A stretch of 64,000 nt of DNA from Capsulimonadaceae bacterium (GCA_965215505.1 OZ244065.1:4544001-4608000), one strand, 5' to 3'. Counted from the first letter of the stretch, positions 19,900 through 41,258 are shown. A program made the numbers and translations. The notes: generated from the letters alone by a model not told the origin.

Positions 19900-19908
19900 C
19901 GCAGGGCC

Positions 19909-20413: not shown

Positions 20414-20443
20414 TTGACAGAAGATGCAAGTTTATGTTAAGCT
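20414..20443 (+). promoter_or_regulatory. Sigma70-like promoter for the nuclease operon
   Basis: TTGACA-18nt-TAAGCT in an AT-rich intergenic region. Confidence 0.5.
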
Positions 20444-20556
20444 ATTTTTATAATAGTGCAGTAATGGTGCAACATTGATCGCCCTGCTGAACACTCGAAA
20501 GCCATGCCGACCACCAGGCGAAGTCGGTGACCGTCCACCGACGAAAGGAGTCAACT

Positions 20557-21880: not shown

Positions 21881-21886
21881 AGCTGT

Positions 21887-24652
21887 TCATGTGATGCTCA
21901 TCTTGGCGAGGTCGTAGACGCGCAGAACCTCGTCGCCGTAGTGGTTGATGACCTTGACGGCGATCTTGCCCGTGTCGGGGGTGTCGAACGGGCGGCTGAC
22001 GGTGGAATACAAGGCCGACCACGCGGACTCGTCTATGTCGGCGCGCAGCGTGTCCCGCAGCTTCTTGTACGGGTCGCCGTCGCCCGTGAAGTAGGCGTGG
22101 CGCACGATGAACGCCTCGCCGTTGTAGGCGGTGTCCACGAACCAGCAGGCCAGGTCGTTGGTGCTGGACGGCTTGATCTCGCCCGTAGTCGGGTCGTAAA
22201 TGTCCAGGCCGAAGATTTCGACTTCGAGTTGCTCGGCCTTCTTCCGAATCTCGATGTCCGGTTCACCGAACACCATGAAGAGGTTGCCCGCGCCCGTCTT
22301 CTTCAGCAGATTCCCGCCGATCATCAAGTCCTGGTTGATGCGGGCCATCATCACCGTCAGCGGTCCGAACTTCTTGATGAGGTAGGTGTCCTCGGTCTGC
22401 TCCTTCGCCTCCTCGTACACGGCGGGGTCGAAGGCGAACCCGCAGATCACCAGGGTGTCGAAGTGCTTCCGTGCCTCCTTGACGGCCTCGCGCACCTGTT
22501 CCGCCGACACGGTGCCGAACTGCGGGCCGAGCGAGACGGCGATACGGTTCCCCGTGCCGCGCTGGACGCCCTCGGCTTGGATATACACGCTGCTGAACGG
22601 TTCCAACTGCTCGAACTCGATCTTCTCGCCCTTCTTCGTATTGCCGACACCCGCCCGCTTCAGGTTCTCGATAATGCTCTGCTCGTACTCGCCGTCCGCC
22701 TCGGCGGTGGCGCGCTTCTCCGTCGCGGGCCGCTCGGCTTCTTCGTCGGGGGCGACGACGCGGTGCGGCGAGATGCTTTCCACGGTGAAGGGGCCGCAGA
22801 CGCGCACGGCCTTGTTGTTCTCGTAGGGCCTGTCGTAGAGGTAAACGGTTTCAGCGCGGCGGGCGATGCTGGCGTCCATCTCCTTCTTGCGCTCGATCCA
22901 GTTCTTCCAGTAGTCGGCGAGCAGTATCGTCGCGGCGGCGGGCCAGTCTTCGCTCGCGATGCGGGGTATCTGCCAGGGTTCCAAGGCGTGACCGAGTTGA
23001 GCGTTCAGGGCGGCGCGAACCGGTTCCAGTTTCGCCTCCCAGCGTTCGTGGATGCCATCGATTTCATCGTTGTTGGCGATGGACTTCAGCGTCACACGGG
23101 GGACGCGTTCATAGACGAAGCCCTTCCGAACGTCGTTCATGGTCGGCGCATCGGGCTGCACTTTGCCGCTGACGATCTGTTCTCTTGCGCGTCCTTCGGG
23201 GCTGTCGGCCAGCAGGAAGGCGGGGTACTTCGCGGCCATCAGGCGGGTGCGGGCGAGGGCCAGAGCGACGCGGCTACTGTCAATCGTGACCCAGCGGCGG
23301 CCCCACTGCTCGGCAACGGTGGCGGTTGTGCCGCTCCCGCAGGTTGGGTCAAGAACGATGTCGCCTGGGTCAGTGGTCATCAGGATACACCGCTTGAAGG
23401 CTTCTGTGGAAGTTTGAACGACGTATATCTTTGGGTCGGATCGGCTCTGAACAGAACCGCTTATGTCGGACCACAAATTCCCCTTAGTTGTTAATTTGAA
23501 GTCGTCCAAGAAATGAATGTAAGAAAGCGTTCTTCCATTACCAAGTAGACGACCAGCCTCAGACAAGCGTTTGAGGCCAACTTGGTCTGTTCGAAATGTC
23601 CTATTGCCTGATGAATACGGAACTCCGTAAAGACGAAACGAAGATGCGTCGCCTGCACCCGGTGCACGGGTACTTGTCACGTCATCCAGCCGAAAATACC
23701 TACCAGAGTCGTCGGGAGTTGTCTGATTGTATCGGCGTTCTGCGTCGTCAGATTTCTCAACCACGATGGGATGCCATTTTGTATGGTTCTTGTCCCTACC
23801 ATACCACAGAAGGTAGTCGCAGGTCGCCCCCAAAAAGTCGCTGGTTTCACCTGTTGTTTTTCGGATGGTGATTTGAGATATAAAGTTTCTGTCCCCGAAC
23901 ACTTCATCCATGAGAGAGCGGACGCGGTGAACATTAGCGTCCCCAATCTGTACGAAAGCACTGCCACTCTCGGTCAGAAGTTCGCGGGCGACTGTCAGGC
24001 GGTCGCGCCAGTACGTCAGGTAGGTGTGAATGCCCTTCTCCCAGGTATCGCGGAAGGCGCGAATGACTTCGGGTTCGCGAGATAAATCCGCAATTTTCCC
24101 ATCCGTGACGGTGCGGCTCCGCGTTGTGGCCTGCCAGTTGGAGCCGAACTTGATGCCGTAGGGTGGGTCCATGATGATGCACTGTATCTGCCCCTTCAGG
24201 CTCGGTGTCTCGCCCTCGGCCAGCGCGTTCATCACCAGGAGCGAGTCGCCCAGGATCAGGCGGTTCCGCCACTTCTCCTGGTGCTGGCTGTATTCGATCT
24301 TCTTCTCCAGAGGCAGGAAATCTTCGACGGAGAACAGCGCGGGCTGCTCCCGCACGACGCCGCCCTCCTTCGCCGCCTTCGCCCGCTCCGCGTCGTACTG
24401 CACCGCCTTGATGATGTCCTGGGGGTTGATCTCCTCCTGGATGTAGAGCGGCACGACCGGGACGGCCAAATCCTCCGAGTCCAGTTCGTCCTTGCCCTGC
24501 CAGACCAGTTGCGGGTCGAGCGACGGGTCGCGGGGGTAGAGTTTCGGCTTCGGGCTGGCCTCCCGCTCCGCGTCAAAGTCGGAAAGTTCCGACGTGAGGA
24601 TGTTCGGGCGGGTGTCGTCGTGCTTGATGGTGTCGATCTTCGTCTCAGGCAT
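21887..24652 (-). CDS. Adenine-specific DNA methyltransferase (type III Mod-like, beta class)
   Basis: NRLILGDSL, DPPYGI and VLDPTCGSGTT; AT-richer central target-recognition region. Confidence 0.9.
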   Translation of the reverse strand: MPETKIDTIKHDDTRPNILTSELSDFDAEREASPKPKLYPRDPSLDPQLVWQGKDELDSEDLAVPVVPLYIQEEINPQDIIKAVQYDAERAKAAKEGGVVREQPALFSVEDFLPLEKKIEYSQHQEKWRNRLILGDSLLVMNALAEGETPSLKGQIQCIIMDPPYGIKFGSNWQATTRSRTVTDGKIADLSREPEVIRAFRDTWEKGIHTYLTYWRDRLTVARELLTESGSAFVQIGDANVHRVRSLMDEVFGDRNFISQITIRKTTGETSDFLGATCDYLLWYGRDKNHTKWHPIVVEKSDDAERRYNQTTPDDSGRYFRLDDVTSTRAPGAGDASSFRLYGVPYSSGNRTFRTDQVGLKRLSEAGRLLGNGRTLSYIHFLDDFKLTTKGNLWSDISGSVQSRSDPKIYVVQTSTEAFKRCILMTTDPGDIVLDPTCGSGTTATVAEQWGRRWVTIDSSRVALALARTRLMAAKYPAFLLADSPEGRAREQIVSGKVQPDAPTMNDVRKGFVYERVPRVTLKSIANNDEIDGIHERWEAKLEPVRAALNAQLGHALEPWQIPRIASEDWPAAATILLADYWKNWIERKKEMDASIARRAETVYLYDRPYENNKAVRVCGPFTVESISPHRVVAPDEEAERPATEKRATAEADGEYEQSIIENLKRAGVGNTKKGEKIEFEQLEPFSSVYIQAEGVQRGTGNRIAVSLGPQFGTVSAEQVREAVKEARKHFDTLVICGFAFDPAVYEEAKEQTEDTYLIKKFGPLTVMMARINQDLMIGGNLLKKTGAGNLFMVFGEPDIEIRKKAEQLEVEIFGLDIYDPTTGEIKPSSTNDLACWFVDTAYNGEAFIVRHAYFTGDGDPYKKLRDTLRADIDESAWSALYSTVSRPFDTPDTGKIAVKVINHYGDEVLRVYDLAKMSIT

Positions 24653-24654
24653 CG

Positions 24655-27600
24655 TCAGTTCTCTTCCTTGCGCGTCGGGAACCAGTGCGCGAACGGGTCG
24701 TTGGCGATGTGGCCGCGAATGACGCTCGCCGCCTCCCACGGGTCGGCGATCTCGATGTAGGACCAGCGGCCAAACGTCTGGTAATTGGTCGCGCCGTAGT
24801 TGTTCACGGCGGGAACCCAGAAACCTTTCGCCGTCATCGCCTTCTGCTGCTTATCGTTCTTCCGCAGGCCCGTCACCTCGATAATGAGTTGCAGCGGATC
24901 ATTTTTACCGTAGCCGTCGTCCACATGGGCGATGAAGTCGGGGAAATACTGCCGCTCCTTGCCCGCCAGCGTATACGGAATCGTGAAGCCGATGTTGTGG
25001 TTCTTGACGTAGCACCGCACTTCGTCCATCTCTTCCAATACCTGCGCCATCTTCTGTTCCCACGAGTCCGTGTCGCAGACGACGTGCGAGATGTGGCACT
25101 TGTCGGCGCGGGTGACATACGTCGGGCGCGTGGTCAGGTAATCTACATGGCGCGTCGTGCCGACGTACTCGTAAGGGCGCAGGATCGGCAGGAGTCGCTT
25201 GACGGGGGTATCTTGCCCCCCGTTGACAATGCCCCCATAGATTTTCTCCGCTGCCTCGTCCGCAGGCTCTCGGAACCGTAACAACTGGGGGAACGTCCTG
25301 TCACCGCAATGGAGGCAGTCCTTCATCCAGCGTTTCGTTATGGAGAGGACCTGTGGAAACAACCAGGACTTGTCGTTGCCAGACCCAGTCGGGAAGTACC
25401 GCTTCAGAATCAGGTGCGCCAGGTAGAACTCCACCTCCTGCACTCGCCGATGCCTTGCCTCCTCGACAGAAATAGTTACGGACTCCCCGATAATAGGCGC
25501 GTTTTCAGTGTCCATCGGAATGTCTTTGGTGGACAAGGAGTAGTGGTGGTCGAGTTGGAAGTCCGCCGTCAGCCGCTCCGTCGGCAGGTCGAAGCGGTAG
25601 CCGAGGACGCGGGGGAAGCGAATCTCGCAAGCCTCCCGCCGTTCTTCCAGGGCACGCACCCGCGTCGGGATCGGGCCTGGCTGCGGGTCGGTCGGCGTCC
25701 CAGCCGATGGGATGAACGAGAACGGCACCCCGAACACCTCGGCGTATTCCGGTTCCAGCATTCCATGTTCGTTCGGCGCGTAACTCATGCGGCGCAGGGC
25801 GCGGCCCACCACCTGCTCGCACAGAAGCTGCGTCCCGAAGGCGCAGACGCCCAGGACGTGCGTTACCGTGTTGGCGTCCCAGCCCTCGGTCAGCATGGAC
25901 ACGGAGACGACGCAGCGGACGCCCTCGCCGAGTTTGCCGCGCTTGCCGACTGTATTCATCACCTCGCGCAGAATGTCTTCGTCGTCCAGGTCGTCGGAGT
26001 CACGGCCTGGGTAGCGAATACGGTACTCGGACTTGAACTCCTCGATCTCGCGGGCGGCGATCTTCTTGAAGTCGTCGGTCAGGCCCTCACCCGAGTCCAG
26101 TTGCTCCGAGTCCACCAGGATCGTGTTCGGGCGGTGCAGCCACTGGGCGTCCTCGCTGACGTTGGAGAACAAGTCGAACTCGCCCCGCTTCAATTTCTTT
26201 GTCTTGCCGTCGTTCAGAGTGATCTCGTACCCCGCGACGTAATCGTAGACCAGTTTGGAAATCTGCGTGTTTTGACAGACGACGATGAAAACGGGAGGCG
26301 TGGTCGCGGCGCGGGCGGCGGGGCTACCCTCCCACCGCTCGTAGAACTTGCGGTAGTTGGTGTATAGGGCGTCCAGTGCGGCCTCCAACTCCTTCGGTAA
26401 GTTCGGGTCTTCGCTGGCCCGCTCCGCCGTCTTGCCACGGCCCGCCTTCGGCAGACCGTGCTTGATGTTCACCCAGAGGTTGCGGAACTTCGGCCCCTCG
26501 CTCGCCATCGTGTCATCGGAGACGGGGACCCGCGGCACCTTGACGATCCCGGACTCGATGCCGTCGATCAACGAGAAGTCCGATGCGACCCAGGGGAACA
26601 GTGCGCCTTCGGGGTAGCCCGACCCTTTCAGGAAGAACGGGGTCGCCGAAAGGTCGTAGATGGCGCGGACGCCGAGTTTGGCCTTGACGTGTTCCAGACC
26701 CGTATGCCACAGGTGGGCGGCCTTCGACTCCTTCTGCAAGGCCCGCTTCTCCTCCGCCGTCAGCGCAGTCATCGCCGCCGCCGCGTCGGTGTCGGGCTTG
26801 CGCGTCCAGCAGTGGTGCCCCTCATCGTTCAAGACGACGACGTTTTTCTTCGTTCCCAAGTCGCGGCAGACCCGCGCCACCATCTGCGCGGGCGTCTCCA
26901 GGAACGGACTGACATCCTTGCCCGTCAGCAGTTTCTTGGTCAGGGCCGCCGCGTCGCCTGTGTCGCGCAGGCGGAAGGCATGAAAGTTCACGAGGGCGAT
27001 CTTGGCACGGTTCATGTCGTCGCGCAGGTGGGGCGGCACGAGTTCCAGATCGGCGTAGTAGTTGTTCGGGTCGGACGGCAGCAGCACCCGCAGGCGGTCA
27101 CGGATGGTGATGCCAGGCGCGACCAGCAGGAAGGCGTCGGCGAATTTCGGGTTCTGCGGGTTTGCCAGCTTGTTCAGCGTGTGCCACGCGATCAGCATCC
27201 CCATCACCGCCGTCTTGCCGCCTCCGGTGCATAATTTGAACGCCGTGCGCTGAAGCGTAGAACTGGCCGTCTCATTGGCCGCGCTCAGTGTCACCGCGAA
27301 GTGACGATACTGCGGGATATTGGGGACGACTTCAGTGAGAAAGATCGCCGTCTCTGCCGCCTCAATCTGCGCGAAGAACAGCCGCCGAAACCGTCCCTCG
27401 TCCTGCCAGTAGTCCAGCAGGAGCCGCGTCGTGCGTGTCACGCCCTCGTACCGTCGCTCGCCCGAACGCCAGACCTTGACGTAGGCGCGCAGTTCGTTGA
27501 TGTACCGGTTCTCCTCGACCTTCTCCGGGACCGGTTCGTCCATGCCAGGCAGGACGGCCATCTGCGCCTTCCTGGACTTGACCTTCGGGATGGGTGAGAA

Positions 27601-27723
27601 GTACGAACTCACCCGCCGTTCGGGAACGACGCGGTTGGTGATGCCCTCGCCATCAAACTCGTGATGCTGCTTTGGTTCGTGATATGGGCTGTTGATGATG
27701 GGGTTTTTGATGACTTCAGGCAT
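24655..27723 (-). CDS. Type III restriction endonuclease Res-like subunit (SF2 helicase + PD-(D/E)XK)
   Basis: CTGGGKT, LNDEGHHC, LSATP, SVSMLTEGWD, QVVGRALRR and YFPDFI...IIEVTG; start placed at MPEVIKNPIINSPY. Confidence 0.88.
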   Translation of the reverse strand: MPEVIKNPIINSPYHEPKQHHEFDGEGITNRVVPERRVSSYFSPIPKVKSRKAQMAVLPGMDEPVPEKVEENRYINELRAYVKVWRSGERRYEGVTRTTRLLLDYWQDEGRFRRLFFAQIEAAETAIFLTEVVPNIPQYRHFAVTLSAANETASSTLQRTAFKLCTGGGKTAVMGMLIAWHTLNKLANPQNPKFADAFLLVAPGITIRDRLRVLLPSDPNNYYADLELVPPHLRDDMNRAKIALVNFHAFRLRDTGDAAALTKKLLTGKDVSPFLETPAQMVARVCRDLGTKKNVVVLNDEGHHCWTRKPDTDAAAAMTALTAEEKRALQKESKAAHLWHTGLEHVKAKLGVRAIYDLSATPFFLKGSGYPEGALFPWVASDFSLIDGIESGIVKVPRVPVSDDTMASEGPKFRNLWVNIKHGLPKAGRGKTAERASEDPNLPKELEAALDALYTNYRKFYERWEGSPAARAATTPPVFIVVCQNTQISKLVYDYVAGYEITLNDGKTKKLKRGEFDLFSNVSEDAQWLHRPNTILVDSEQLDSGEGLTDDFKKIAAREIEEFKSEYRIRYPGRDSDDLDDEDILREVMNTVGKRGKLGEGVRCVVSVSMLTEGWDANTVTHVLGVCAFGTQLLCEQVVGRALRRMSYAPNEHGMLEPEYAEVFGVPFSFIPSAGTPTDPQPGPIPTRVRALEERREACEIRFPRVLGYRFDLPTERLTADFQLDHHYSLSTKDIPMDTENAPIIGESVTISVEEARHRRVQEVEFYLAHLILKRYFPTGSGNDKSWLFPQVLSITKRWMKDCLHCGDRTFPQLLRFREPADEAAEKIYGGIVNGGQDTPVKRLLPILRPYEYVGTTRHVDYLTTRPTYVTRADKCHISHVVCDTDSWEQKMAQVLEEMDEVRCYVKNHNIGFTIPYTLAGKERQYFPDFIAHVDDGYGKNDPLQLIIEVTGLRKNDKQQKAMTAKGFWVPAVNNYGATNYQTFGRWSYIEIADPWEAASVIRGHIANDPFAHWFPTRKEEN

Positions 27724-28294
27724 GGGGTCCGTTTCTCGTGCGCGGGATGCACCGAGAAATTCCACAAAGCGGCCTTGAACTCCTGCACGATTATCCCAAA
27801 GCCTGATAGCGCGATTGGCGGCAGGCACTCCTGCACGCGCTACAAGCCTCCTCGAAGACGTTGACGGTGTCCGGTCATCACGACGCCTGGAAATGCGTCC
27901 TGGGGGTGTTCTGCGCGGTCCTGAGGCATATGGACGAGACAAACCGGGGGCGCACCGAAACCGGACGGCGGGCGCACCACCGGGTAGCCTGGAGCATGAC
28001 GGTGCCAGACACCGCAAATACCTTCCGCCAGAATGCCGATGACGAGGATGACGGTAAGCCACTCCTCCAACTTGACGCTTCCAGAGACCGAGGGGAGACA
28101 GGAACACAGAGATGCCCCGGTCGAGATGGCGACTTCTGAGTGCGAGTTGTAACCACATGAATGATAGACGTATGTCTAAAAAATGGTGTGGTTCCGGGGT
28201 ATCATGAACGCGGTGCAGGTGGGGACCACTTTTATCCCGAAGCACCTCTATGTAGGATGATCCGAGATCATCCCTGATAAAGGAAGCCAACACA

Positions 28295-30325
28295 ATGGAT
28301 AAAATATGGACCCCCGACGCCCTCGTCCGGGAACTCGAAACGATGACGCCTGCCCATGCCGTGGATGTGACGGGGAGCATTGACCCGCGCAGATGTTCGA
28401 CGCCCCTCATCGACCGCATCCTGATCGATGGCGAGGTCATCGAACTGTCTCTCGTCGGTGGTCGCTACGGCGCGGGCAAGGTGCGTGTCTCCACCAAACG
28501 CCAGCGCACGGGCAAAGAGGCCAACCCGGACGGATTCAGCGAGAGCGACCAGGTCAGGCGCATCATCAACCACTTCGTGGCCCTGCGCCAGAGTTTCCGC
28601 ATCTTCACCGACTGCGGACTGAGCGGCAGCCTCCCGCCCAACGACCCGTACCTGATGAAGAAAATGTGGACCAAGAAGGCCGTCATGTACGGGCGCATCT
28701 TCGACAAGGTCTTCCTGTCCGAGTTCGCTGCCGAGAAGTTCACGAAGCTGCAGTTGCTCGAACTCAAGGGATACCGGGACGCCCGCGTCAAGAAAATCCT
28801 CGCGGGCAAGCTGGGCGTCGAGGAAGAACCGGTCGAGCCTGAGGACCCGGAGGCCGAAACCGAGAAGCTGGTTCTCCGGGGGCGGCCCCGGATCACGCTC
28901 GACTACCGACCGGGGCTGACCCTGCTGATGCAGTCGCTGGACGAAATTCACACGGTGGCCGTCACGGACCTGTCGCGCCTGTGCCGCTCCCAGGTCCTGG
29001 CGGCGGAACTGGCTGAACAGTTCATCGAGCACAAGGTCAAGCTGGAGGGCCTCGTCGAGACGATCAAGTTCTTCAACAGCACCGAGTTCGGCGACGAGAT
29101 CGCCAAGGTCGTCCTGTCCATGCTGGCGGAGCAGAAACTTCAGGAGGTGTGTCTGCACTCCCTGCGCGGCCTATACGCGATGCTGGAGTCGGGTAGGCCC
29201 CACGGCACGCCACCGCACTGGATTACCAAGAACGAGAACGGCAAGGCCGTCCTGAAGCCCGGACCCGCCGAAACCGTCAAGGAGATCGTGGAGATGTACC
29301 TCTCCTCGGACGACGTGTCGGCCAACGTGATCCGCAACTCGCTGCGCGAACGCGGCGTGAAGATGCCTTCGGGCCGCGAGTACGGTACTCACACCATCTA
29401 TCACCTCCTGAAGAACCCCGCCCTCATGGGCGTGCAGAAGAACTTCGGCATCTCCTGGCACATTTACCCCGCCTTGGTGACCCCGGAGCAGTTTGAGTTA
29501 ATCCAGATCAAGGTGACGCGCAGGCGCAGTTACCGGTACTCCAACAACAGCGTCAAGGAGAAGGACGGCTACCTGATGACATCCATGGTCAGGTGCCACT
29601 GCGGGACAGCCGTCGTCCACGCCGTGACAGGCAGGCGCGTCCATCTCTACCGCTGTCGGCGAAAGAACGAGAGCGGGGCGTCCCACCACGGCGCGATCTA
29701 CCACGACTCGCTGAACGACTTCATCAACGGCCTGATGTCCGCACACCCGCTCGTCGTGTTGGGGTCATTCAAGAACGACGCCAAGTACACCGAACTGAAG
29801 GCGCAGATCAAGCACCTGGAGCATCAGGCGGCGGAACTGAAGGTCCAGCAGCGTATGGCGCACGAGGCGGCCAGGAACCGGGCGGTCGAGCAACTGGCCC
29901 TCTCCAACATCGACGACAGCAACCCCATGTTCTCGGCGACGGTGGACACGCTGACGAGGGCGTTCCTCGTGGACAAGAACGAGCACGCCCAGCACATCGA
30001 GGACACCCTGACGAAGCTGCGCCTGAAGCTGAACGGCCTTGTACCCGCGGATAAGTTCCTGACGATTGAGGAGCGGGTCCGCTGCTGGAACGGCCTGAGC
30101 AACACCGAGAAGAACACGATCCTGTTGCTGCTCTTCGAGAAGTTTCAACTGAGGAAGGTCGACGGCCAGCAGTTCCTGGAGGTGCGGCTGAACAACTCGA
30201 CGCGCACGGTCATGCCGCTCATCCCGCTGATCCTGCCCGCAGGACGGGTCCGCAACCGGACGTGTCTGCTGCCGACGGTGGAGGAGTGGCTACTCGGCTT
30301 CACGAGCGTAGAGGAACAGCCGTAG
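28295..30325 (+). CDS. Large serine recombinase 1 (with insertion in the catalytic domain)
   Basis: VRVSTKRQ, FTDCGLSG, RPGL, DLSRLCRS; recombinase domain; CHCG...YRC zinc ribbon; coiled coil. Confidence 0.85.
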   Translation: MDKIWTPDALVRELETMTPAHAVDVTGSIDPRRCSTPLIDRILIDGEVIELSLVGGRYGAGKVRVSTKRQRTGKEANPDGFSESDQVRRIINHFVALRQSFRIFTDCGLSGSLPPNDPYLMKKMWTKKAVMYGRIFDKVFLSEFAAEKFTKLQLLELKGYRDARVKKILAGKLGVEEEPVEPEDPEAETEKLVLRGRPRITLDYRPGLTLLMQSLDEIHTVAVTDLSRLCRSQVLAAELAEQFIEHKVKLEGLVETIKFFNSTEFGDEIAKVVLSMLAEQKLQEVCLHSLRGLYAMLESGRPHGTPPHWITKNENGKAVLKPGPAETVKEIVEMYLSSDDVSANVIRNSLRERGVKMPSGREYGTHTIYHLLKNPALMGVQKNFGISWHIYPALVTPEQFELIQIKVTRRRSYRYSNNSVKEKDGYLMTSMVRCHCGTAVVHAVTGRRVHLYRCRRKNESGASHHGAIYHDSLNDFINGLMSAHPLVVLGSFKNDAKYTELKAQIKHLEHQAAELKVQQRMAHEAARNRAVEQLALSNIDDSNPMFSATVDTLTRAFLVDKNEHAQHIEDTLTKLRLKLNGLVPADKFLTIEERVRCWNGLSNTEKNTILLLLFEKFQLRKVDGQQFLEVRLNNSTRTVMPLIPLILPAGRVRNRTCLLPTVEEWLLGFTSVEEQP

Positions 30326-30508
30326 GCCATGGAAGGCCCGCACGTGCCGCTCCTCGCCCCCCTTTTCGGCCATGGCCGAGAGGTTGCGGGCTACAAGGTC
30401 CCGGTTCCGGTGTAGGTCGGGGTGGCATTGGTCCTCGGGCGCGGCCTGAATAAGTCGGGCCAGGTGGAGGTAGTCATCGCGTGTCGGATTCTCGGTGAAG
30501 ATGCTCAT
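30290..30508 (-). CDS. Small hypothetical protein
   Basis: 72-aa helical ORF downstream of Prim-Pol on the same strand; no recognisable motif. Confidence 0.35.
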   Translation of the reverse strand: MSIFTENPTRDDYLHLARLIQAAPEDQCHPDLHRNRDLVARNLSAMAEKGGEERHVRAFHGLRLFLYAREAE

Positions 30509-30633
30509 GTGGTTCTACCCTGTCTGCTCATTCATGGCGTCCATGCTGGTGATGTTCGGCATAGAGCCTCCCAGAACATTCTACCCCAAACTCGCATCGG
30601 CCAGGACCACCCGGTCCTGGCCGATGCGTCCGT

Positions 30634-32232
30634 CTACTGCCGCGCCAGCCAATTCCGCTTCTGCGCCTCGATGATCGCCGTCGCGTGCCGCTCGCGCTCC
30701 TCCCGATGGCGTTGGACGCGCCCCTCCGCCCTGCCCAGCGTCCCCTGCTCCTGCGCGATCTGGTCCAACACCGCGACGGACACGTCCACCGCACGCCAGT
30801 GTCCGTCATCGGCATGGGCAAGGCCATGACCGTCCAGCTTCCCGAGGGCGAGCCTGACCGTGGGCCGCGTCTTGCCCGTGCGCGCCACGATCTCCGCCTC
30901 CGTCAGCCCCGGAGCCGCCTGTAACGTTGTCCAGCAGGCCAGGGCCGACTTACCCAGCGCAAGGCTGTGCCAGACGTCGTGGGCCTCCGAGTTCCGTACA
31001 CTAACCCCTACAAGGGCGTAGGCTTCGCCTACTGTACGGGTTTGGGATTGGTTCTCCCCGCTGGCGGGGGGAGGGCAGACCGGTTCCTGGGCGACAGGAA
31101 CGTACTCCGAGAGGACGTGGACGGCCAGGGAGTAGCGGGCACTGCGCGCCGCCCCATCCTGACCCTCCAAGTGGACCAAGCCCGCTTTCACCAGCCGAGA
31201 CAGAGCCGCGCACGCCGTCTCCTTGTTGACCCCTGCCAACTCCGCCACCTCGCGCACCGACCCCCGGAACGGTATCCCGCCGTCCATCCGCATCCGCTGG
31301 CACAGGGCCAGGTACACGGCCCGGTCGGTGTTGCCCGTCCTTCCGGGCCACGGGCGGGCTTCGGCCCAGCGCATGAAGGCCGAGGAGTGAGGATCGCCTG
31401 GCCTGCGGGATGAGGCCCGGTCGGGCGGCCTCTGCTTCATGCGGGCCTGATCGAGCACCGACCGCTTGAAGTGCGTCTCGCCCACCTTGGCGTAGTGCGG
31501 CGGCGGGAAGAGCGAGAGGAGGTACATGATGTCGGCGTCACCATAGCCGACGCCGATCAGCGACAGGCAGACCGCGAACTCGGCCTCGCTGTCCGAGTGG
31601 TAGGCCGAGGTGTCCTGCTCGACGAGCACCCGGTCCGCGACCACGGGCAGTTCGTGCATCTTCCCCCTGGCCCTGCGGCGGCCCACCGTCTCCAGGCCCA
31701 GTCCGAGCACGCCGAGCGTGTCCAGGGACACCAGCGGCGGCTGCGGGCCTGCGCGGTGCAGCCACTCGTAGACCATGCCCGACGGATGAAGGCTGGGCGG
31801 GGCGACGGTGTACTTGCGGTTGCCGAGGACGTCCACGTCGCCTACCTTCGCGTTCGCGACTTCCCCATCCTGGCACCGGAGCCAGTATTGCCCGCCGTCC
31901 ACGCCGTTCCGGGGCCAGGCCGCGATGCTGAGGGTCGCCAGGCCGTGGCCGATTCGCTGGAAGGACCCTTCGGAGTCGCAGTCCAGGACGAACAGGTTCC
32001 CGGACAATCTGCCCGTCATGACGGCGATGTTGCTGCCCCGCACCAACGCGGGGAGGCTGGGCCTGTGCAGGCGCGTGGTCGTCAGGATGCTATGGGAGCC
32101 ATACGGCTCCTTGCTGGCCCGGATGACCGGGAACACGTTCAGGCTCGCGTCGTAGAGGTCCAGGGCTTCGCGGATGGAGTCGTCCCAGTCCTCGGCGGGA
32201 GTCTGCGGGGTAGGGTGTTGAATCTCATCCAT
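30634..32232 (-). CDS. Bifunctional primase/polymerase (Prim-Pol, AEP) replication protein with C-terminal HTH domains
   Basis: VFPV...KEP, NIAVMTG, VLDCD, YTVAPPSLHPSG.VYEW; SVREVAELAGVNKETACAALSRL and LTEAEIVARTGKTRPTVRLAL HTHs. Confidence 0.8.
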   Translation of the reverse strand: MDEIQHPTPQTPAEDWDDSIREALDLYDASLNVFPVIRASKEPYGSHSILTTTRLHRPSLPALVRGSNIAVMTGRLSGNLFVLDCDSEGSFQRIGHGLATLSIAAWPRNGVDGGQYWLRCQDGEVANAKVGDVDVLGNRKYTVAPPSLHPSGMVYEWLHRAGPQPPLVSLDTLGVLGLGLETVGRRRARGKMHELPVVADRVLVEQDTSAYHSDSEAEFAVCLSLIGVGYGDADIMYLLSLFPPPHYAKVGETHFKRSVLDQARMKQRPPDRASSRRPGDPHSSAFMRWAEARPWPGRTGNTDRAVYLALCQRMRMDGGIPFRGSVREVAELAGVNKETACAALSRLVKAGLVHLEGQDGAARSARYSLAVHVLSEYVPVAQEPVCPPPASGENQSQTRTVGEAYALVGVSVRNSEAHDVWHSLALGKSALACWTTLQAAPGLTEAEIVARTGKTRPTVRLALGKLDGHGLAHADDGHWRAVDVSVAVLDQIAQEQGTLGRAEGRVQRHREERERHATAIIEAQKRNWLARQ

Positions 32233-32437
32233 GATATTGTGTTGCCGCCCCTCTGAACTCGTCGCGGCTCATCAGCACCGTCTTGCCTCGGTGTCGGTAG
32301 GCCGCGAGTACCGTCCGAACGACTCCGGGGTGCGCTCTAACCCACTCCAGCCCCTCGTACTCTCCCGTACCGTCCGGGGTTTTCTTTATCTCGCCCGCCG
32401 TCACAGGCACTGCTGACGGCGCGGTTTCGGTAACCAT
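32225..32437 (-). CDS. Small hypothetical protein coupled to Prim-Pol (possible directionality factor or regulator)
   Basis: GAGAGG RBS; stop overlaps the Prim-Pol start. Confidence 0.45.
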   Translation of the reverse strand: MVTETAPSAVPVTAGEIKKTPDGTGEYEGLEWVRAHPGVVRTVLAAYRHRGKTVLMSRDEFRGAATQYHG

Positions 32438-32640
32438 TTTCTGCCTCTCATAACGCTATGTCACGACTTCGCTGTCCCACCCGACCCGAAAGAGCGTGGT
32501 GGAATGACAGCGGCCTCGTGTGGTGCATGATAGTGCCGTGGATGGCCTGCGAACGGAAAATAGTTGATAATTTTTTTGAGACCCGGTAAAATGAGCAGGG
32601 TTTGAAGATCGCAAGAATACTTCCGGTGGACGGGCAGAAC

Positions 32641-34293
32641 ATGACAAAGAACTTAAAAAGGAACGTGGTCATCTCGAATCAAGTCGTTGATGATGCAGCG
32701 GATCGGACAGGTCGGGTTGCGATTCGTGTAAGCGAACAAGGTGACCGTGGGAAGATGAACGATCAAGGAGAAATCGAGCGCGGCTTTTATTCGCCAGAGG
32801 TTCAGTCGGAGGCCGCTTCAGAATTGTATGCCCGTCTGGGCATATGGTACGATGCCAAGACATCATTGGACTTGCAGGACATCGACCGCCGCGCCAGTAA
32901 AGATGGATCGGTTCTGGCACGCGAAGGCATTCAACAGCATCTTGAGGATGCCAAGAACAAGAAATTCACTGACATCGCCTTTTACAAAGTGTCGCGCATG
33001 GCGCGGTCACCTACAGATGGAATCCAACTTGTCCTCGATTTCATCGCGGCTGGAGTCCGGGTTCACTTCATAAAAGATAAACTGCCCGATGTGAATACCG
33101 CTGTAGGGCAGACTTTTCTTTTCTGGTTTTTGAATCAGGCGCGAGCAGAGTCCGAGAACACGGGCCAATTCATATCCGATACCATCGCCCTCAAGTGGAA
33201 AAAAGGCATTCCGCACGGTGTCACGCACGGCTGGCTCCAAAAGACCAACGGGGCGTACACAATCCAGGAGCAGGGTTGGAAGACCTATCGGCGTTTGATC
33301 GTCTTGGGGCTGGAGGGACACTCATACAGCGCAATCTCCCGTCGGCTGAACACCGAGGGTTTCCCGACGAAGCGCGGGAAATTGTGGACCGCTGCCCAGG
33401 TCTCGGGCATCCTCAGAGTCGAGAACATCCCGAAGTTGCTTGGCACCGCCGTCTGTGATGATCTCCTGGACAAAGAGGGGAGGCCGATCAGAATCCACGG
33501 AGCGTGGCCTGCGCTCATCTCGGAAGAGGAGGCGGCTCAACTACGGTTGCTCGCGCCGATAAAAACAGCCAGTGTGCCGTGTGTCAAGAACCAGCGGACG
33601 AACTACGCCCGTAACCGGTTTTTGCTTTCCGGGATAGTCCGGTGTTCCATATGCGGGGAATCCTTGAACGCTGGACACGGGCACACGAGGGGTGGGGAGT
33701 ACGACACCTACTGCTGCAAGCAGGGGGCCAACGGACATCCGCTTCACGAGGCAGCCCTCCACGACGAGGATGGGGCTTGGGTGAAAGGGAACAAAACCAT
33801 CCAGGTGGACAAGGAGAACCTGGACGAGGCCGTATTGAGAGTCGTCACCCACGGGATGGACGTGCCCGATGTCGAGAAGGCCATGGAAGAGCGCAAGCCG
33901 AAGGCGAAGGCCAAAGTTCGAACCACGGGTGACATCGAGAAAGACGCGATGAAACTGCTCAAGCAAAAGGACGAGATACCGGATTGGCTCTTCGCCAAAC
34001 GGATGCAGGAACTGGATGCGGAGCGGTCTAAGGTGATGAGCGAGATGGAGGACCAGCAAAGCCAGCGGAACTTAGACTTGGCGATGCGGCGCGAGCAGGA
34101 CGAGCAGGTCGCGAAGAAACTCATGATCCGTGCGCTGGTGGCGTCGGCGACGTTCCCGCACTCGCTCCAGGGCAAGCGACGGGTCTACCGGGCGGTCAGG
34201 GTCGTGATGAAGACGGGCGGGGCATACCTCGCGCCGATCCACAAGGAAGATTTCACCGGAGTCCGGGCCGTAGTCCGGGATGACGCTGTATGA
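32641..34293 (+). CDS. Large serine recombinase 2
   Basis: AIRVSEQ, YSPEVQ, YKVSRMARS, ARAESENTG, SYSAISRRLNTEGFPTKRGKLW, WPALISEE and LLSGIVRCSICG...YCC; start may be 32602 or 32641. Confidence 0.88.
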   Translation: MTKNLKRNVVISNQVVDDAADRTGRVAIRVSEQGDRGKMNDQGEIERGFYSPEVQSEAASELYARLGIWYDAKTSLDLQDIDRRASKDGSVLAREGIQQHLEDAKNKKFTDIAFYKVSRMARSPTDGIQLVLDFIAAGVRVHFIKDKLPDVNTAVGQTFLFWFLNQARAESENTGQFISDTIALKWKKGIPHGVTHGWLQKTNGAYTIQEQGWKTYRRLIVLGLEGHSYSAISRRLNTEGFPTKRGKLWTAAQVSGILRVENIPKLLGTAVCDDLLDKEGRPIRIHGAWPALISEEEAAQLRLLAPIKTASVPCVKNQRTNYARNRFLLSGIVRCSICGESLNAGHGHTRGGEYDTYCCKQGANGHPLHEAALHDEDGAWVKGNKTIQVDKENLDEAVLRVVTHGMDVPDVEKAMEERKPKAKAKVRTTGDIEKDAMKLLKQKDEIPDWLFAKRMQELDAERSKVMSEMEDQQSQRNLDLAMRREQDEQVAKKLMIRALVASATFPHSLQGKRRVYRAVRVVMKTGGAYLAPIHKEDFTGVRAVVRDDAV

Positions 34294-34510
34294 CTCAGAA
34301 GGGGCGAAGAGTCCCGCGCCCGGACATCCCATCCGCTCCGCACCATTGTGTCAGGCAACCGGAAGCGATTCCCGCCCGCCCGCTTGAAAGATCACATTCC
34401 GTGGTATAGTAATTGTATCCCAAGATTGATTGGGTCAGGTTCTTGCAAAACCCTCGCCGACATTTTCCCGTCGAACCGCCCCGCGGCGAGGAAGCAGCGC
34501 ATGAACCATC

Positions 34511-35470
34511 ATGGCCTATCACCAGACCGAACAGCCGCACGGCCCTGTTGACCTTTCCTTTCCGGTCCCGGATCACGCCCGCGTTGTCGCCGTCGGTGCC
34601 TCGGCGGGCGGGCTACAGGCCCTCGGCCTAATCCTGGCCGCCCTGCCTGCCCACTTCCCCGCGCCCGTCCTTGTCGTCCAGCACCTGTCCCCCGACTTCC
34701 CCAGCCAACTCGCCCGCCTCCTGGGACGCCACACGGCCCTGCACGTCAAGCAGGCCGCCCAGGGCGACCGCCTCCGGGCGGGCTGGGTGTACGTCGCCCC
34801 ACCCGGAAAGCACCTGTTGGCCTGTGCCGACGGGAGCCTCGCGCTGACCCTCACCCACAAAGTGCACCACTGCCGCCCGTCCGCCGACGTGCTGCTCACC
34901 TCCGTGGCGGCCAGTTTCGGGGTCCGGGCGGTCGGCGTGATCCTGACGGGCGGCGACGGGGACGGTGCGGCGGGCATCCAGGCAATCAAGGCAGCGGGCG
35001 GTGTCACCATCGCCCAAGACCTGTCCAGCAGCCAGCAACCCAGTATGCCTCGAAACGCCGCCGCGACGGGGGACGTGGACCATGTGCTGCCGTTGTCCGA
35101 CATCGCCGCCGCTCTGATGGCTCTAACGGGTCCGGGGGGGCAGTCTGCCACTGAAAGAGAACGCCCCAGCGAAGACGAGACCGAGGTCCATGAGAATGGG
35201 AACCGGGCGGGGCGTTTCGAGTGTGACAGGGTCAATGAGAGGGCGCGGGTGAGGCGGAACCGCGTCGCAGGTCTGCTGAAGCGGGCGCAGGCGACGCCGA
35301 CTTCCCCTGGCCTCCTGGAGGAGGCGGTCGCAGAACTTGCGGCCTGTTCGGGGGCGTTGGGGGTGGCGGAGGAGGCTTTACGGGTGCAAAGTGACGTTAT
35401 CACATCGTACTGGCTGGCTCTCGGGGCCGAAGCCGCAGGGCCGCCGACCCGCGGAACGTCCCCTTCCTGA
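34511..35470 (+). CDS. CheB-type methylesterase with a C-terminal coiled-coil extension
   Basis: VGASAGG, VVQH, RPSADVL and ILTGGDGDG (S-H-D triad); no receiver domain. Confidence 0.85.
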   Translation: MAYHQTEQPHGPVDLSFPVPDHARVVAVGASAGGLQALGLILAALPAHFPAPVLVVQHLSPDFPSQLARLLGRHTALHVKQAAQGDRLRAGWVYVAPPGKHLLACADGSLALTLTHKVHHCRPSADVLLTSVAASFGVRAVGVILTGGDGDGAAGIQAIKAAGGVTIAQDLSSSQQPSMPRNAAATGDVDHVLPLSDIAAALMALTGPGGQSATERERPSEDETEVHENGNRAGRFECDRVNERARVRRNRVAGLLKRAQATPTSPGLLEEAVAELAACSGALGVAEEALRVQSDVITSYWLALGAEAAGPPTRGTSPS

Positions 35471-35525
35471 GAGGGAAAGTATTCGGAGGAATGATTGAGG
35501 AAAATCATTCAGAACTGAGACAACC

Positions 35526-36704
35526 ATGGCCCGTGCGAAACTGCTGCTCCAGGAGATCGAGACCTACGCTCAAAATATAGGCGATACCGTCCGAGACCCC
35601 CTGGTCATCCTCGACAGGGACCTGCGCGTCAAGTCCGCGAACCGGTCGTTCTATAAGACGTTCCAGACCTCGCCCGAGGACACGGAGGACTGCCTGATCA
35701 GCGAACTCGGCAACGGCCAGTGGGACCTGCCCCCGCTGCTGGCCCTGCTGCGCGACATCCTCCCCACCAAGGGCCACTTCGACGACTTCGAAGTGACGCA
35801 CGACTTCCCCTGCATCGGCCAGCGGACCATGCTGCTGAACGCCCGCAAGCTGTACCGTCCAGGCAACCGCACCGTCCTGCTCGTCCTCGACATCGAGGAC
35901 ATCACCGAGCGCAAGCGGACCGAGACGCGGCTCGCCGCCGCCCAGCAGCGCGACAGACGGATCGCCTCCACCCTCCAGCGCGCCCTGCTGTTCATGCCCC
36001 CGGAGGACGCCTTCCCAGGGCTGGAGGTCAAGATGCTGCACGAGGCGGCCTCCGAGGAGGCCCTGGTGGGCGGCGACTTCTGGGATATGTTCGCCTACGA
36101 CAACGGCCACGTTGCCCTGGTGATCGGGGACGTCATGGGCCATGGGCTGACGGCGGCGGTGTTCACGGCGGAGATCAGGTTCATCCTGCGGGCCTTCCTG
36201 CGGGAACACGAGCGGCCCGGTTTTGTCCTGAACAACCTAAACGCCTACCTGTGCGAGAGCCACCGCCTGTTCCGGGAGGGGCTGAATGATGAGGGGGACG
36301 AGGCCCCCGTGTGCCTGGCCTTGGCGGTGATCCACGCCGCGTCGGGGGAGGGCGTGGTGGCGTCGGCTGGGATGGAGCCGCCACTGCTGATCCGGGCGGG
36401 CACGGGGATCGATCAAGTGGCGGTGTCGGGTCTGCTGCTGGGGGTCGAGGCGGACCAGGAGTACCAGGCGGTTCCGTTCCGCCTGGAACACGGGGACACG
36501 CTCCTGCTGACGACGGACGGGATCACGGAGGCGCGGCGGGGCAAGGAGTTCTTGGACACGGCGGGCCTGATGCGTCTGGTGCGGGAGGCCCCGCTGCGGG
36601 GGAACCTGGAACAGACGGCGCAGTCCATTTTGGCGGGGGCGCGGGAGTTTGGGGGCGGCAGGTTCCGGGATGATGTGTGCCTGGTGATGGCGCGACGCCT
36701 GTGA
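35526..36704 (+). CDS. PAS + PP2C (SpoIIE-like) phosphatase
   Basis: PLVILDRDLRVKSANRSFY...ELGNGQWD PAS; VGGDFWD, IGDVMGHG, TTDGITE and DDVCL. Confidence 0.88.
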   Translation: MARAKLLLQEIETYAQNIGDTVRDPLVILDRDLRVKSANRSFYKTFQTSPEDTEDCLISELGNGQWDLPPLLALLRDILPTKGHFDDFEVTHDFPCIGQRTMLLNARKLYRPGNRTVLLVLDIEDITERKRTETRLAAAQQRDRRIASTLQRALLFMPPEDAFPGLEVKMLHEAASEEALVGGDFWDMFAYDNGHVALVIGDVMGHGLTAAVFTAEIRFILRAFLREHERPGFVLNNLNAYLCESHRLFREGLNDEGDEAPVCLALAVIHAASGEGVVASAGMEPPLLIRAGTGIDQVAVSGLLLGVEADQEYQAVPFRLEHGDTLLLTTDGITEARRGKEFLDTAGLMRLVREAPLRGNLEQTAQSILAGAREFGGGRFRDDVCLVMARRL

Positions 36705-36841
36705 CGGAAGTCGCCCCGTGTAACGCGGGGCTTCAACCGTCGCGGGCGAGTGCGGGAAGATTTTGGCGTCGGGTGTCCGTTAAATCATGGCTTCGTTGGA
36801 GTCAGGTACTCAGGAGACGGCAGCGTCGGGAGACAAGCGCA

Positions 36842-37426
36842 ATGGGGGATGAGATGCTCGCGCCGACTGGGGGGCCAGTCGGCCCTTCTCCAGAGGCCCC
36901 GGACCCCACGCCTTCCATGCAGGAACACCCCTCCACTCGGGCACGGACGACGCCCCCACCGTTGTCGCTGCTGGACAAAGCCTTGGTGGAATTGGAAGCC
37001 TGCCTCGAAGCCCTGCGGGTGGCCGAGGGAGTCATCCGGGCGCAGAATGGGGTCCTGAAGGAGTACCGTATGGCCCGCCACGCCGAGCGGCGTCGATACC
37101 TGGACCTGTTGGCGTATGTGTCCGACGCGCTCCTGGTCACCGACGTGGACGGCCTGATCCTGGAGGCAAGCCCCGCCGCTGCCCGCCTGCTGTCGGGGTC
37201 TCGGCGTCTCCGCGCTGGCAAGCCCATCGCCCGGTTCTTCACGCATGACAGGCGGGTGGCCCTGCTCGGGGCAGTGCGGGCCACCGGGGGCGGGGCCGCC
37301 TGGGAGGGTGACCTGTGGATCAAGCCGCGGCTCGGCGTGGCCTTCTTCGCCTTCGTCACCGTCACGCCCGTGCCTGCCGCCAAGGACGTCCCGCCCGCCC
37401 TGCGCTGGCTGATTCGTCCCGCCTGA
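36842..37426 (+). CDS. Coiled-coil + PAS domain protein
   Basis: ELEACLEALRVAE...ERRRYLDLL...DALLVTDVDGLILEASPAAARLL. Confidence 0.7.
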   Translation: MGDEMLAPTGGPVGPSPEAPDPTPSMQEHPSTRARTTPPPLSLLDKALVELEACLEALRVAEGVIRAQNGVLKEYRMARHAERRRYLDLLAYVSDALLVTDVDGLILEASPAAARLLSGSRRLRAGKPIARFFTHDRRVALLGAVRATGGGAAWEGDLWIKPRLGVAFFAFVTVTPVPAAKDVPPALRWLIRPA

Positions 37427-37522
37427 CTGCGTGCCCCCCACGAGCCATGTGCCTCACTGGACTGAACTCGGGGAGTGGCAGGGTGGGCAACACTCGCGGT
37501 CTGATGCTGCGCCGCTCCGACG

Positions 37523-37951
37523 CTACACCCTCGACTTGAGGCGTTTTTCCGCGACGACCGTCGTACCCGTCGGGTGTGACGTGCGGAACTCCACGTTATC
37601 GGCGAGGCTCCTGACGAGGTGCAGACCGAATCCGCCGAACCTCTCCGTTCCATCCACGTCTGCGCGGGCTGACCCGACCGGAGGCAACGAAGCCGTGTCC
37701 AACCCCGGACCGTAGTCGGCCACGCTCAACGTCACCCGGTCAACGTGGTATTCGAACCGCACCTGGAAATAGCCAGCAGAGGAGCGGGCGTGCAGTGTGG
37801 CGTTCGAGGCGAGTTCACCCAGGATGACCTCGACGTCCGTGATGTCGTCGGCGGCCACGCCGTGGCGTTCCAGGAGCAGCCGAGCCATATGGCGGATGAT
37901 GGGCACGAACGCGTGGTCTTCGGGCAGGTCGAGCGCGAGGGCGGTCTTCAT
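37523..37951 (-). CDS. RsbW-like anti-sigma factor / serine kinase (HATPase_c)
   Basis: LGELASNATLHA, VADYGPG and GGFGLHLVRSLAD. Confidence 0.85.
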   Translation of the reverse strand: MKTALALDLPEDHAFVPIIRHMARLLLERHGVAADDITDVEVILGELASNATLHARSSAGYFQVRFEYHVDRVTLSVADYGPGLDTASLPPVGSARADVDGTERFGGFGLHLVRSLADNVEFRTSHPTGTTVVAEKRLKSRV

Positions 37952-38064
37952 GGCCCTTGTCTTTCTGCCCCCCCGCGGGTGCGCGACTGGTGACTAAATG
38001 CTTTACTATACCCAGCCTGTGGTCGTATCGTAGAACCGTAACCCTCAAGGTGCGAAAATTCCGT

Positions 38065-40341: not shown

Positions 40342-40537
40342 GCCTACTCTTGTTCCTGACTTCCGTTCCGTCCAGGCCGCGCACCGAAGCCGCGCTTCCC
40401 GCGGCACCCACACCGCGCCCGTGTGAAAAGGCGCAAGCAGCCAAGCCCGAGTGATTGTAACACGAATCACTCCGTTCGGCAAGGGCGAGGTACGGGACGA
40501 GGAATGACGGGGGCTTGGGAGGCGGCGATCACTGACA

Positions 40538-41107: not shown

Positions 41108-41258
41108 GGTTGCTGACCGTTCGCCTTTTACTTGTCATTCGCGTAGTCTACCCGGTGGAGGACGAGGGCTAACCCACAAACGCTTCGATGGCGGAGCAGT
41201 GAGCGCGGTCGTAAGGACCCGTCTTATGCAGAACTACTTAGGGTGCGCTAAATCAGGA

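Follow-up and report, generated by a model that had tools for sequence, protein, structure and literature searches.

Introduction

Staphylococcal cassette chromosome (SCC) elements, which sit at the 3′ end of rlmH, combine defence cargo with large serine recombinases (LSRs) and a replication operon; their recombinase genes, ccrA and ccrB (or ccrC), lie as an adjacent pair acting together. Here we describe a locus that follows part of this plan, in a 64,000-nucleotide stretch from a Capsulimonadaceae bacterium (GCA_965215505.1 OZ244065.1:4544001-4608000; ‘the window’ below means this whole stretch), a piece of a 6.18-Mb single-contig genome of 66.5% GC, hereafter G000, whose relatives are found in Armatimonadota. 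In the window a 21.4-kb island occupies the 3′ end of ogg, the gene for 8-oxoguanine DNA glycosylase, and carries two LSRs, LSR1 and LSR2, separated by a gene for a primase-polymerase (Prim-Pol) fused to winged helix-turn-helix (wHTH) regions. We consider it probable that the island is an integrative mosaic: LSR2 would serve the ogg site, the Prim-Pol-wHTH protein would replicate the element, and LSR1 would be a separate module and not the partner of LSR2.

Four groups of described elements come close. For SCCmec, a conserved operon has been described, and its proteins characterised, in a paper whose title names a primase-helicase pair (PMC7581432), and defence cargo has been described as moving with the SCC element (PMC11470126). 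The present locus resembles SCC elements in its replication operon, its defence cargo, the lack of conjugation or capsid genes and its place at the 3′ end of a housekeeping gene. It differs in that the target is ogg and not rlmH (orfX); the LSRs are split by the Prim-Pol operon and, judged among 40 relatives, are not co-inherited; the replication protein is a Prim-Pol-wHTH fusion with no helicase gene beside it; and the phylum is Armatimonadota. Among actinomycete integrative and conjugative elements (AICEs), 19 of 144 have a serine recombinase, Prim-Pol is found in 40, and the integration site of some is a protein-coding gene; the group is defined by an FtsK/SpoIIIE Tra protein and was restricted to Actinomycetales in that study (PMC3218068). 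An integrase (tyrosine or serine) together with a Prim-Pol-type replication module on a small integrated element is common to AICEs and the present island, which differs by the absence of an FtsK/SpoIIIE domain among the island open reading frames (ORFs) scanned, by its two LSRs and by the wHTH-fused Prim-Pol. Judged by the defining features of either group, the island is neither an SCC element nor an AICE.

Integrated elements that encode an AEP-type (archaeo-eukaryotic primase) Prim-Pol are described as having att repeats, tyrosine or serine recombinases and a highly variable gene content (Kazlauskas et al., 2018, PMC5862659). One of them integrates in the 3′-distal part of a protein gene, and genes for MTase, REase and wHTH proteins are among the abbreviations of a figure (PMC5862659); the likeness of our island to these elements is drawn from such descriptions. 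Lastly, islands of integrative and mobilizable elements (IMEs) or cis-mobilizable elements (CIMEs) with several unrelated integrases are reported to arise by accretion, nesting and recombination, and the IMEs that use serine recombinases to have very short terminal direct repeats, the site-specific ones usually disrupting their target gene (PMC5704250). In contrast, the island described here restores its target with a replacement 3′ end of ~110 bp, which is unusual for a serine-recombinase element, and no relaxase or oriT was identified in it. In word searches of the open-access literature, which do not prove absence, elements like this one did not turn up as described either from Armatimonadota or from the ogg site.

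The general kind of element is therefore already known, and no new principle is claimed, mosaic islands with several integrases being well known. What the locus offers is a worked example, in the little-studied Armatimonadota, of defence systems on small replicative islands that would be reshuffled via a shared replication gene; LSR2 and an attB within the final ~110 bp of ogg as a candidate for a new integrase/att pair; a rare LSR1-type subfamily with a possible directionality factor, orf72; and a rare Prim-Pol-wHTH protein family.

Results

The island and its boundaries

The island spans 19999-41366 (21,368 bp). An 11-nt core occurs exactly twice in the 64-kb window, at 19988 and 41356, and the features at the two ends are as follows.

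41259-42260, minus strand: ogg (8-oxoguanine DNA glycosylase), the target gene, with OGG_N and HhH-GPD domains, intact after insertion
41259-41366, minus strand: island-borne replacement ogg 3′ end, the P′ arm of attL, with the core copy at 41356-41366
19909-19998, minus strand: displaced native ogg 3′ end, the B′ arm of attR, with the core copy at 19988-19998
19999-20460, no strand: left island terminus, the P arm of attR; window 19908-20460 is matched at 76% by G009:C112:46-566
20073-20309, minus strand: ORF of 78 amino acids in the left terminus, 77% identical in G009

Comparisons were made within a set of 41 genomes, G000 and 40 relatives. In five relatives of the same genus (G015, G007, G014, G005 and G004) ogg is followed directly by a homologue of the cyclase-STAND-TPR gene that in the window (16957-19899) lies just beyond the displaced ogg end, and 19999-41366 is therefore an insertion. 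The displaced end is 75% identical to the replacement (19909-19998 against 41280-41366); it is found by tblastn (72% over ogg residues 299-327) and by nhmmer (E 2e-23, from profile position 50), and an alternative ATG of the cyclase-STAND-TPR gene falls on its stop codon. The target gene, which is present in 39 of the 41 genomes, has stayed intact because the island supplies a homologous 3′ end in place of the native one. This replacement is ~92% identical to the same part of the ogg of one relative, G009, the rest of the gene being 74% identical. Since the ogg of G015 natively has the island-type 3′ end, with a long C-terminus and the cyclase gene directly next (L031 2390-2510), the island's ogg end may have been captured from a G015-like host, or else an island may have been lost in G015.

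The ORF of 78 amino acids is a candidate for a directionality factor or small regulator belonging to the LSR2-type backbone; neither it nor orf70, orf72 and orf74 below could be placed in a Pfam or PHROG family, lenient thresholds included. At 20013-20057, 15-60 nt inside the left end, a ~19-nt motif occurs in two direct copies that are not conserved in G009.

The two recombinases and the genes between them

28295-30325, plus strand: LSR1, 676 amino acids, with Pfam and PHROG matches
30290-30508, minus strand: orf72, small, convergent with LSR1 and overlapping its end; 86% identical in G012
30634-32232, minus strand: Prim-Pol (AEP) with two wHTH regions; PF09250 at E 1.6e-12 (residues 23-161), with GntR, MarR and IclR HTH matches
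32225-32437, minus strand: orf70, its end overlapping the Prim-Pol start; 80% identical in G009, with a ratio of nonsynonymous to synonymous substitution rates (dN/dS) of 0.35
32448-32672: orf74, doubtful as a gene, looks non-coding
32641-34293, plus strand: LSR2, the inferred ogg-site integrase, ~550 amino acids; ORF 32602-34293 with a likely ATG at 32641; the G009 homologue has 551 amino acids

An original prediction, made from the sequence of the window, had described two co-oriented LSRs, each with a catalytic RVS serine, a recombinase domain and a zinc ribbon, around a minus-strand Prim-Pol operon, 7-8 kb from the nearest att site and without capsid, relaxase or type IV secretion system (T4SS) genes. 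This is borne out at the stated coordinates. The RVS motif lies near residue 66 in LSR1 and near residue 43 in LSR2. The Recombinase domain (PF07508, cut-off 21.1 bits) matches LSR1 at 6.7e-12 with 46 bits and LSR2 at 1.5e-8 with 35.2 bits, and Resolvase matches them at 5.7e-7 and 1.7e-10; the zinc ribbon appears only as a sub-threshold match (Zn_ribbon_recom, 23.0 bits in LSR1 and 23.8 bits in LSR2, cut-off 25.3 bits). Both proteins fall in the PHROG integrase family phrog_95 (1.2e-43 for LSR1, 2.3e-51 for LSR2), and the SRxxR of both aligns with the DRLxR of Gin and TP901-1 integrase, Ser replacing Asp. By domain content, then, the locus has the LSR catalytic domain, PF07508 with a zinc ribbon just below cut-off, and the Prim-Pol domain. 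The two LSRs, both on the plus strand, enclose orf70, the Prim-Pol-HTH gene and orf72 on the minus strand; the distance from the left junction to the LSR1 start is 8.3 kb, and that from the LSR2 end to the right junction 7.1 kb. The island ORFs (19999-41366) scanned with Pfam, PADLOC and PHROGs showed no capsid, relaxase, T4SS or FtsK/SpoIIIE domain, small ORFs not being scanned exhaustively.

These are genes and not chance ORFs: LSR1, LSR2, orf72 and orf70 are each conserved in G012 or G009, and both LSRs are under purifying selection. Their low dN/dS, together with the retained catalytic Ser and SRxxR, suggests that both LSRs are functional.

In the Prim-Pol protein D84, C85, D86 and H149 are invariant in 16 homologues; we take these residues to belong to AEP motifs I and II. 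The protein is 78% identical to its homologue in G012 and 70% to that in G009. Its family is small, with 35 proteins at E <= 1e-5 in a search of 5.8 billion, and in a phylum-wide sample of 401 genomes Prim-Pol was matched in 14, at full length only in G000 and G012. We presume that the Prim-Pol-wHTH protein is the replication initiator of the excised island. orf70 belongs to the G009-like part of the island (see below) and is a possible accessory or directionality factor.

Among nine further Prim-Pol-wHTH loci (79 ORFs, scanned with Pfam), an LSR lies nearby only in L064; L060, L062 and L063, which have long flanks, carry no LSR and have helicase, Abi and other defence-like genes instead. In L064 (4089-7858), a metagenome contig, an LSR in two frames lies upstream of a Prim-Pol-wHTH gene, also in two frames, amid PLD-ResIII helicase, ankyrin and insertion sequence (IS) genes; this locus looks like a relative in decay whose LSR is of yet another type. 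Viral contigs lent no support to a phage or satellite origin. Among them, Prim-Pol matched 24 loci, of which one held a full-length relative, at 28% identity, and LSR2 had one partial match of 23% and LSR1 none; nothing there was close to Prim-Pol, LSR1 or LSR2.

LSR2 and the ogg site

The assignment of the ogg site to LSR2 comes from G009. There the ogg stop is followed after 57 bp by the LSR2 stop and then by orf70 and Prim-Pol, and contig C112 has the left island terminus next to the displaced ogg end that is G009's own. The islands of G000 and G009 thus have LSR2 and both termini in common, the cargo otherwise being different. The LSR2 proteins of the two genomes are 87% identical over aligned codons (86% in the similarity search), with dN/dS of 0.125. 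The two junction cores of G009 differ from each other at positions 3, 4 and 6, and GACCT is kept in both, which would place strand exchange within GACCT; an exchange confined to at most 5 bases fits a serine recombinase. On these grounds we infer that LSR2 is the ogg-site integrase.

Two observations from public sequencing runs (X3, X4, X6 and X7, from four studies, available as assembled contigs, in which rare excision is not visible) touch the same site. A joint 39000->19912 in X3 and X4 was considered as a circle junction and was not counted, its simplest explanation being a contig running into an ogg 3′ end that resembles 19912-19998. In X6, a 421-nt low-depth contig covers 19907-19998 with 8 differences and is then unlike the island; it may come from a relative's uninterrupted ogg.

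Two ancestries joined within Prim-Pol

The island is of mosaic ancestry. From 20542 to ~32150, a stretch that comprises the nucleases, LSR1, orf72, the restriction-modification genes Mod and Res and the larger part of Prim-Pol, identity to G012:C2 is 84-87%, and 30637-34294 matches G009; G012 is without LSR2, and G009 without LSR1. Since identity to G009 reaches 0.89-0.90 at 32000-32200, just where identity to G012 collapses, we place a recombination breakpoint near 32000-32150, in the 5′ part of Prim-Pol, joining the two ancestries.

In G012 the island (C2:20648-39171) is bounded at both ends by a perfect 38-bp repeat of the 5′ part of tRNA-Arg(TCG) and has a tyrosine integrase and an HTH_17 gene at its left end; LSR1 therefore lies within an island that owes its place to a different integrase. 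On the far side of Prim-Pol, where G000 has LSR1, G009 has a third LSR (701 amino acids), which shows no BLASTP similarity to LSR1 (E 0.047) or LSR2 and adjoins a PLD-SNF2 helicase and an Eco57I/MmeI-like methylase.

Among the 41 genomes LSR1 is matched in 10, LSR2 in 8 and Prim-Pol in 4; the only close LSR1 among the 40 relatives is that of G012 (96%), the only close LSR2 that of G009 (86%), and G000 alone has close copies of LSR1, LSR2 and Prim-Pol. This bears on the suggestion of the original prediction that the two LSRs either cooperate or divide integration and excision between them. At the ogg att sites they would then work jointly, in a heteromer like CcrA/CcrB or as one protein that integrates and another that excises. 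Such a pairing would suit two intact, co-oriented genes that flank a replication operon, a composite that persists in the contigs of four other runs, and the presence in G009 too of two LSRs flanking Prim-Pol. It is not supported, because close homologues of the two never occur together outside G000 among the 40 relatives, an outcome that the original prediction had itself named as telling against it. Moreover, LSR1 sits in the tRNA-Arg/tyrosine-integrase island of G012 without LSR2, G009 keeps the island ends and LSR2 with a second LSR that lacks BLASTP similarity to LSR1, and the breakpoint separates LSR1 from LSR2, whose identity is as low as 21% over 286 residues. We regard a cooperating pair as very improbable. 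Of the SCC-like logic that had been proposed, the place at the 3′ end of a housekeeping gene, the replication gene and the defence cargo hold, if loosely, and a cooperating CcrAB-like pair is not supported.

The contiguity of LSR1, Prim-Pol, LSR2 and CheB (the first gene right of LSR2) recurs in the four runs, which are not independent lineages: in an 11.5-kb contig of X3 and a 10.8-kb contig of X6 with 7 differences each, in a 15.3-kb contig of X4 with ~1.6% differences, and at low depth in X7. The composite is stable across close strains.

LSR1 and orf72

LSR1 is well kept. It is 96% identical to the G012 protein (94% at the nucleotide level), and its dN/dS, 0.076 at a dS of 0.23, makes it the most constrained gene of the block shared with G012. 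In a family alignment its subfamily is marked by an N-terminal extension, which is conserved, and by a catalytic domain enlarged by ~100 residues; cysteine pairs are conserved too, with C434, C436 and C454 invariant. With the N-terminal 220 amino acids as query, an exhaustive search of 1.84 billion cluster representatives returned 94, of which 72 at E <= 1e-10; by this count the subfamily is rare. Five other LSR1-family genes (three in G014, one in G012:C299 and one in G038) have no Prim-Pol in the flanking DNA fetched. One of those in G014, on contig C28, begins 55 nt past a truncated ChlI/Mg-chelatase-type gene, placed as would be a terminal integrase.

Homologues of orf72 with ~30% identity adjoin LSR1-family genes at 2.16 Mb of the G000 genome and in G014:C50. 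Complex prediction of LSR1 residues 300-676 with orf72 gave ipSAE values of 0.78, 0.56 and 0.38 (median 0.56), the best of three controls giving 0.00; agreement between the runs covers at least 69% of contacts, and the partner's pLDDT is at least 75. Of 80 solved complexes 58 reached the mark set for such predictions, as did 2 of 110 mismatched pairs, and scores of up to 0.60 include 7 of the 80 solved complexes and both of the mismatched pairs, so that 0.56 falls in a weak zone; the prediction used its own small alignments, for which these benchmark counts hold only roughly. The model thus points tentatively to orf72 as a candidate partner of LSR1, perhaps a directionality factor or regulator. 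Overall, LSR1, possibly with orf72, is probably a separately evolving integrase module that arrived with the defence cargo.

Could LSR1 then have moved that cargo itself? The original prediction had set against the pairing the case in which each LSR has its own att pair, in nested or tandem elements; an att pair can be assigned to LSR2, and none was found for LSR1 when repeats of at least 10 nt were searched at the ends of a candidate nested cassette. Such a cassette would consist of LSR1 and the Type III restriction-modification block (~20461-30636), mobilised by LSR1 and inserted in the LSR2 island next to Prim-Pol, each element with its own att pair; the third LSR of G009, with its PLD-helicase and methylase cargo, would have done likewise. 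Part of the geometry is attractive, as the segment replaced relative to G009 spans the left terminus (20460) to the exact Prim-Pol stop (30637), and in G000 and G009 alike the replaced segment starts with an LSR beside Prim-Pol and carries a restriction-like system. That purifying selection on LSR1 is the strongest in the block, and that the LSR1-family gene of G014:C28 stands at an element end beside a truncated host gene, would suit it as well. Nevertheless, besides the missing terminal repeats, the block shared with G012 runs past LSR1 and orf72 and continues through Prim-Pol with gradually falling identity, the LSR1 end overlaps orf72 and leaves no space for an att site, and the shared block begins, on its left, just where a gene starts. 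We therefore hold nested elements to be unlikely, if not negligibly so.

Three observations on LSR1 and its family stand apart from this. A perfect 8-bp inverted repeat with a 3-nt spacer, in AT-richer sequence at 28255-28273, lies ~20 nt upstream of the LSR1 start and is a possible operator or binding site. A second island in G000 (2147000-2165000) holds an LSR1-family paralogue at 2.157 Mb (813 amino acids, 27-29% identical) together with an orf72-family gene and ParB; it also encodes a split UvrD-PD-(D/E)XK helicase-nuclease, a tyrosine integrase and a DUF3854 protein. G014:C50 has the same trio of LSR, orf72-family gene and ParB, and in both places the orf72-family gene is convergent and nearby.

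Discussion

A model for the island

Our preferred reading, the mosaic island served at ogg by LSR2, may be set out as follows. LSR2 would recombine attP on a circular form of the island with an attB in the last ~110 bp of ogg, by exchange within GACCT. The insertion would push the native ogg end 21.4 kb away, and the replacement end carried by the island would keep the gene whole. After excision, the Prim-Pol-wHTH protein would start replication of the circle, with orf70 and the terminal ORF of 78 amino acids perhaps acting as accessory or directionality factors. Another island lineage, represented by the tRNA-Arg island of G012 with its tyrosine integrase, would have supplied the restriction-modification block, LSR1, orf72 and the greater part of Prim-Pol, and this G012-like block would have been joined to the LSR2-type backbone by homologous recombination inside Prim-Pol. 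LSR1 would then be a second, independent integrase with a target of its own, kept by strong purifying selection. The island as a whole is probably self-replicating and not self-transmissible. Its boundaries, its mosaic ancestry, the lack of co-occurrence and the purifying selection are shown, whereas the role of LSR2 at ogg, replication by Prim-Pol and mobility at the present day are presumed.

Several points weigh against this reading. The ogg-site assignment rests on the two related islands of G000 and G009, which are not independent lineages, and in G000 a distance of 7 kb separates LSR2 from the junction, an unusual position for an integrase gene. In the reconstructed attP, the dyad about GA covers 14 of 24 positions in G009 and 10 of 24 in G000, where it is marginal, 282 of 5000 shuffles scoring as high, and GA is not the single best dyad centre in a scan of attP. 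The presence in G009, too, of a second LSR beside Prim-Pol leaves room for a need for two LSRs in this island family, and to this comes the lack of an att pair for LSR1. Neither an excised circle nor a same-strain empty site was found among the assembled contigs, which are unable to show rare excision. Finally, in all five complete or near-complete relatives with other cargo downstream of ogg, the nearest LSR lies at least 314 kb from ogg, so that much of the variability at this place needs another explanation or reflects decayed islands.

Some of these points would be expected if the island were an immobile fossil, its LSRs kept for another role, such as the resolution of replication products or regulation, or merely by recent ancestry. 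The identical structure in the contigs of four other runs, the failure to find excision (in assembled contigs only), the host-like genes that fill the 7 kb between LSR2 and the junction, and the five relatives in which ogg cargo has no LSR nearby would all agree with that. Low dN/dS for both LSRs and for Prim-Pol across genomes, termini conserved between G000 and G009 despite different cargo, and intact catalytic motifs argue the other way, and we think a fixed island quite improbable; we are equally doubtful of the attendant proposal that ogg-cysS variability stems mainly from ordinary recombination.

A more speculative arrangement, to which we give a small chance, is that Prim-Pol-wHTH islands are docking platforms for exchangeable defence cassettes, each inserting beside Prim-Pol with its own LSR. 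The cassettes would be LSR1 with the Type III system in G000 and G012, and the third LSR with the PLD-helicase and Eco57I-like methylase in G009, and LSR2 would move the whole platform into ogg; this finer scheme, too, we would call unlikely. If true, it would amount to a two-tier, integron-like shuffling of defence genes run entirely by large serine recombinases.

Cargo and the variable ogg-cysS interval

20527-21357, plus strand: PD-(D/E)XK nuclease; PF12705 at E 6e-12, phrog_69 exonuclease; the first gene of the block shared with G012 (homology from 20542)
21344-21880, plus strand: small homing-endonuclease-like gene; phrog_5046 at E 1.9e-19, weak LAGLIDADG_1
21887-24739, minus strand: Type III Mod methyltransferase; PADLOC MTase_III PDLC03632 at E 9.9e-255, PF01555 at E 1.1e-33
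24655-27870, minus strand: Type III-like Res, helicase with C-terminal endonuclease; REase_III 8.5e-8, ResIII 0.0028, weak RE_endonuc
34310-41258, no strand: host-like signalling block of 7 kb; CheB, PAS-SpoIIE, PAS, PAS-GAF-SpoIIE and CheB by Pfam; GC 0.65-0.72
15747-15788, minus strand: marginal second ogg 3′-end remnant; 88% over 42 nt to 19901-19942, nhmmer E 0.059

Mod and Res are encoded together, as in a Type III restriction-modification system, the Mod match being strong and the Res match weak. The longest Res ORF runs to 28440, and its N-terminal translation looks out of frame; the G012 homologue has 1072 amino acids, and the first ~190 residues of that ORF are probably not coding. 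The middle of Mod (~23300-23900) is variable: identity to G012 is 0.33-0.45 at 23400-23700, and X4 replaces 23382-23897 with 574 other letters, which looks like a swap of the target-recognition domain.

The signalling block lies between LSR2 and the island-borne ogg end. It is absent at that place in G009, and relatives have only paralogous pieces of it, elsewhere. Variation is not confined to the island: cysS, at 3376-4821 in the window, comes directly after ogg in G024 and one gene further along in G001, and the whole 36-kb ogg-cysS interval is therefore variable in the genus. The gene downstream of ogg differs in most relatives. The notion that every such variant is a live LSR island was dropped on account of the five relatives discussed above.

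The second ogg remnant overlaps the start of a PAS-GAF-SpoIIE gene (13233-15758), and in G002 ogg is directly followed by a PAS-SpoIIE homologue. The 42-nt repeats (88%) flank 15747-19908 and span the ogg stop and the start of the next gene, with an ORF of 280 amino acids and the cyclase-STAND-TPR gene inside; the segment 15789-19908 may have been inserted earlier at the same site. The cyclase-STAND-TPR gene has a paralogue at 10434-13208, and there is an IS605-family OrfB (TnpB-like) gene at 8864-10015, inside the ogg-cysS interval. In G006 (L040 3644-3733) a second ogg 3′-end fragment is found ~1.2 kb downstream of ogg, with a DUF1559/N-methyl-motif gene between them and no LSR within 450 kb of the fragment, possibly a small integrase-less insertion at the same site.

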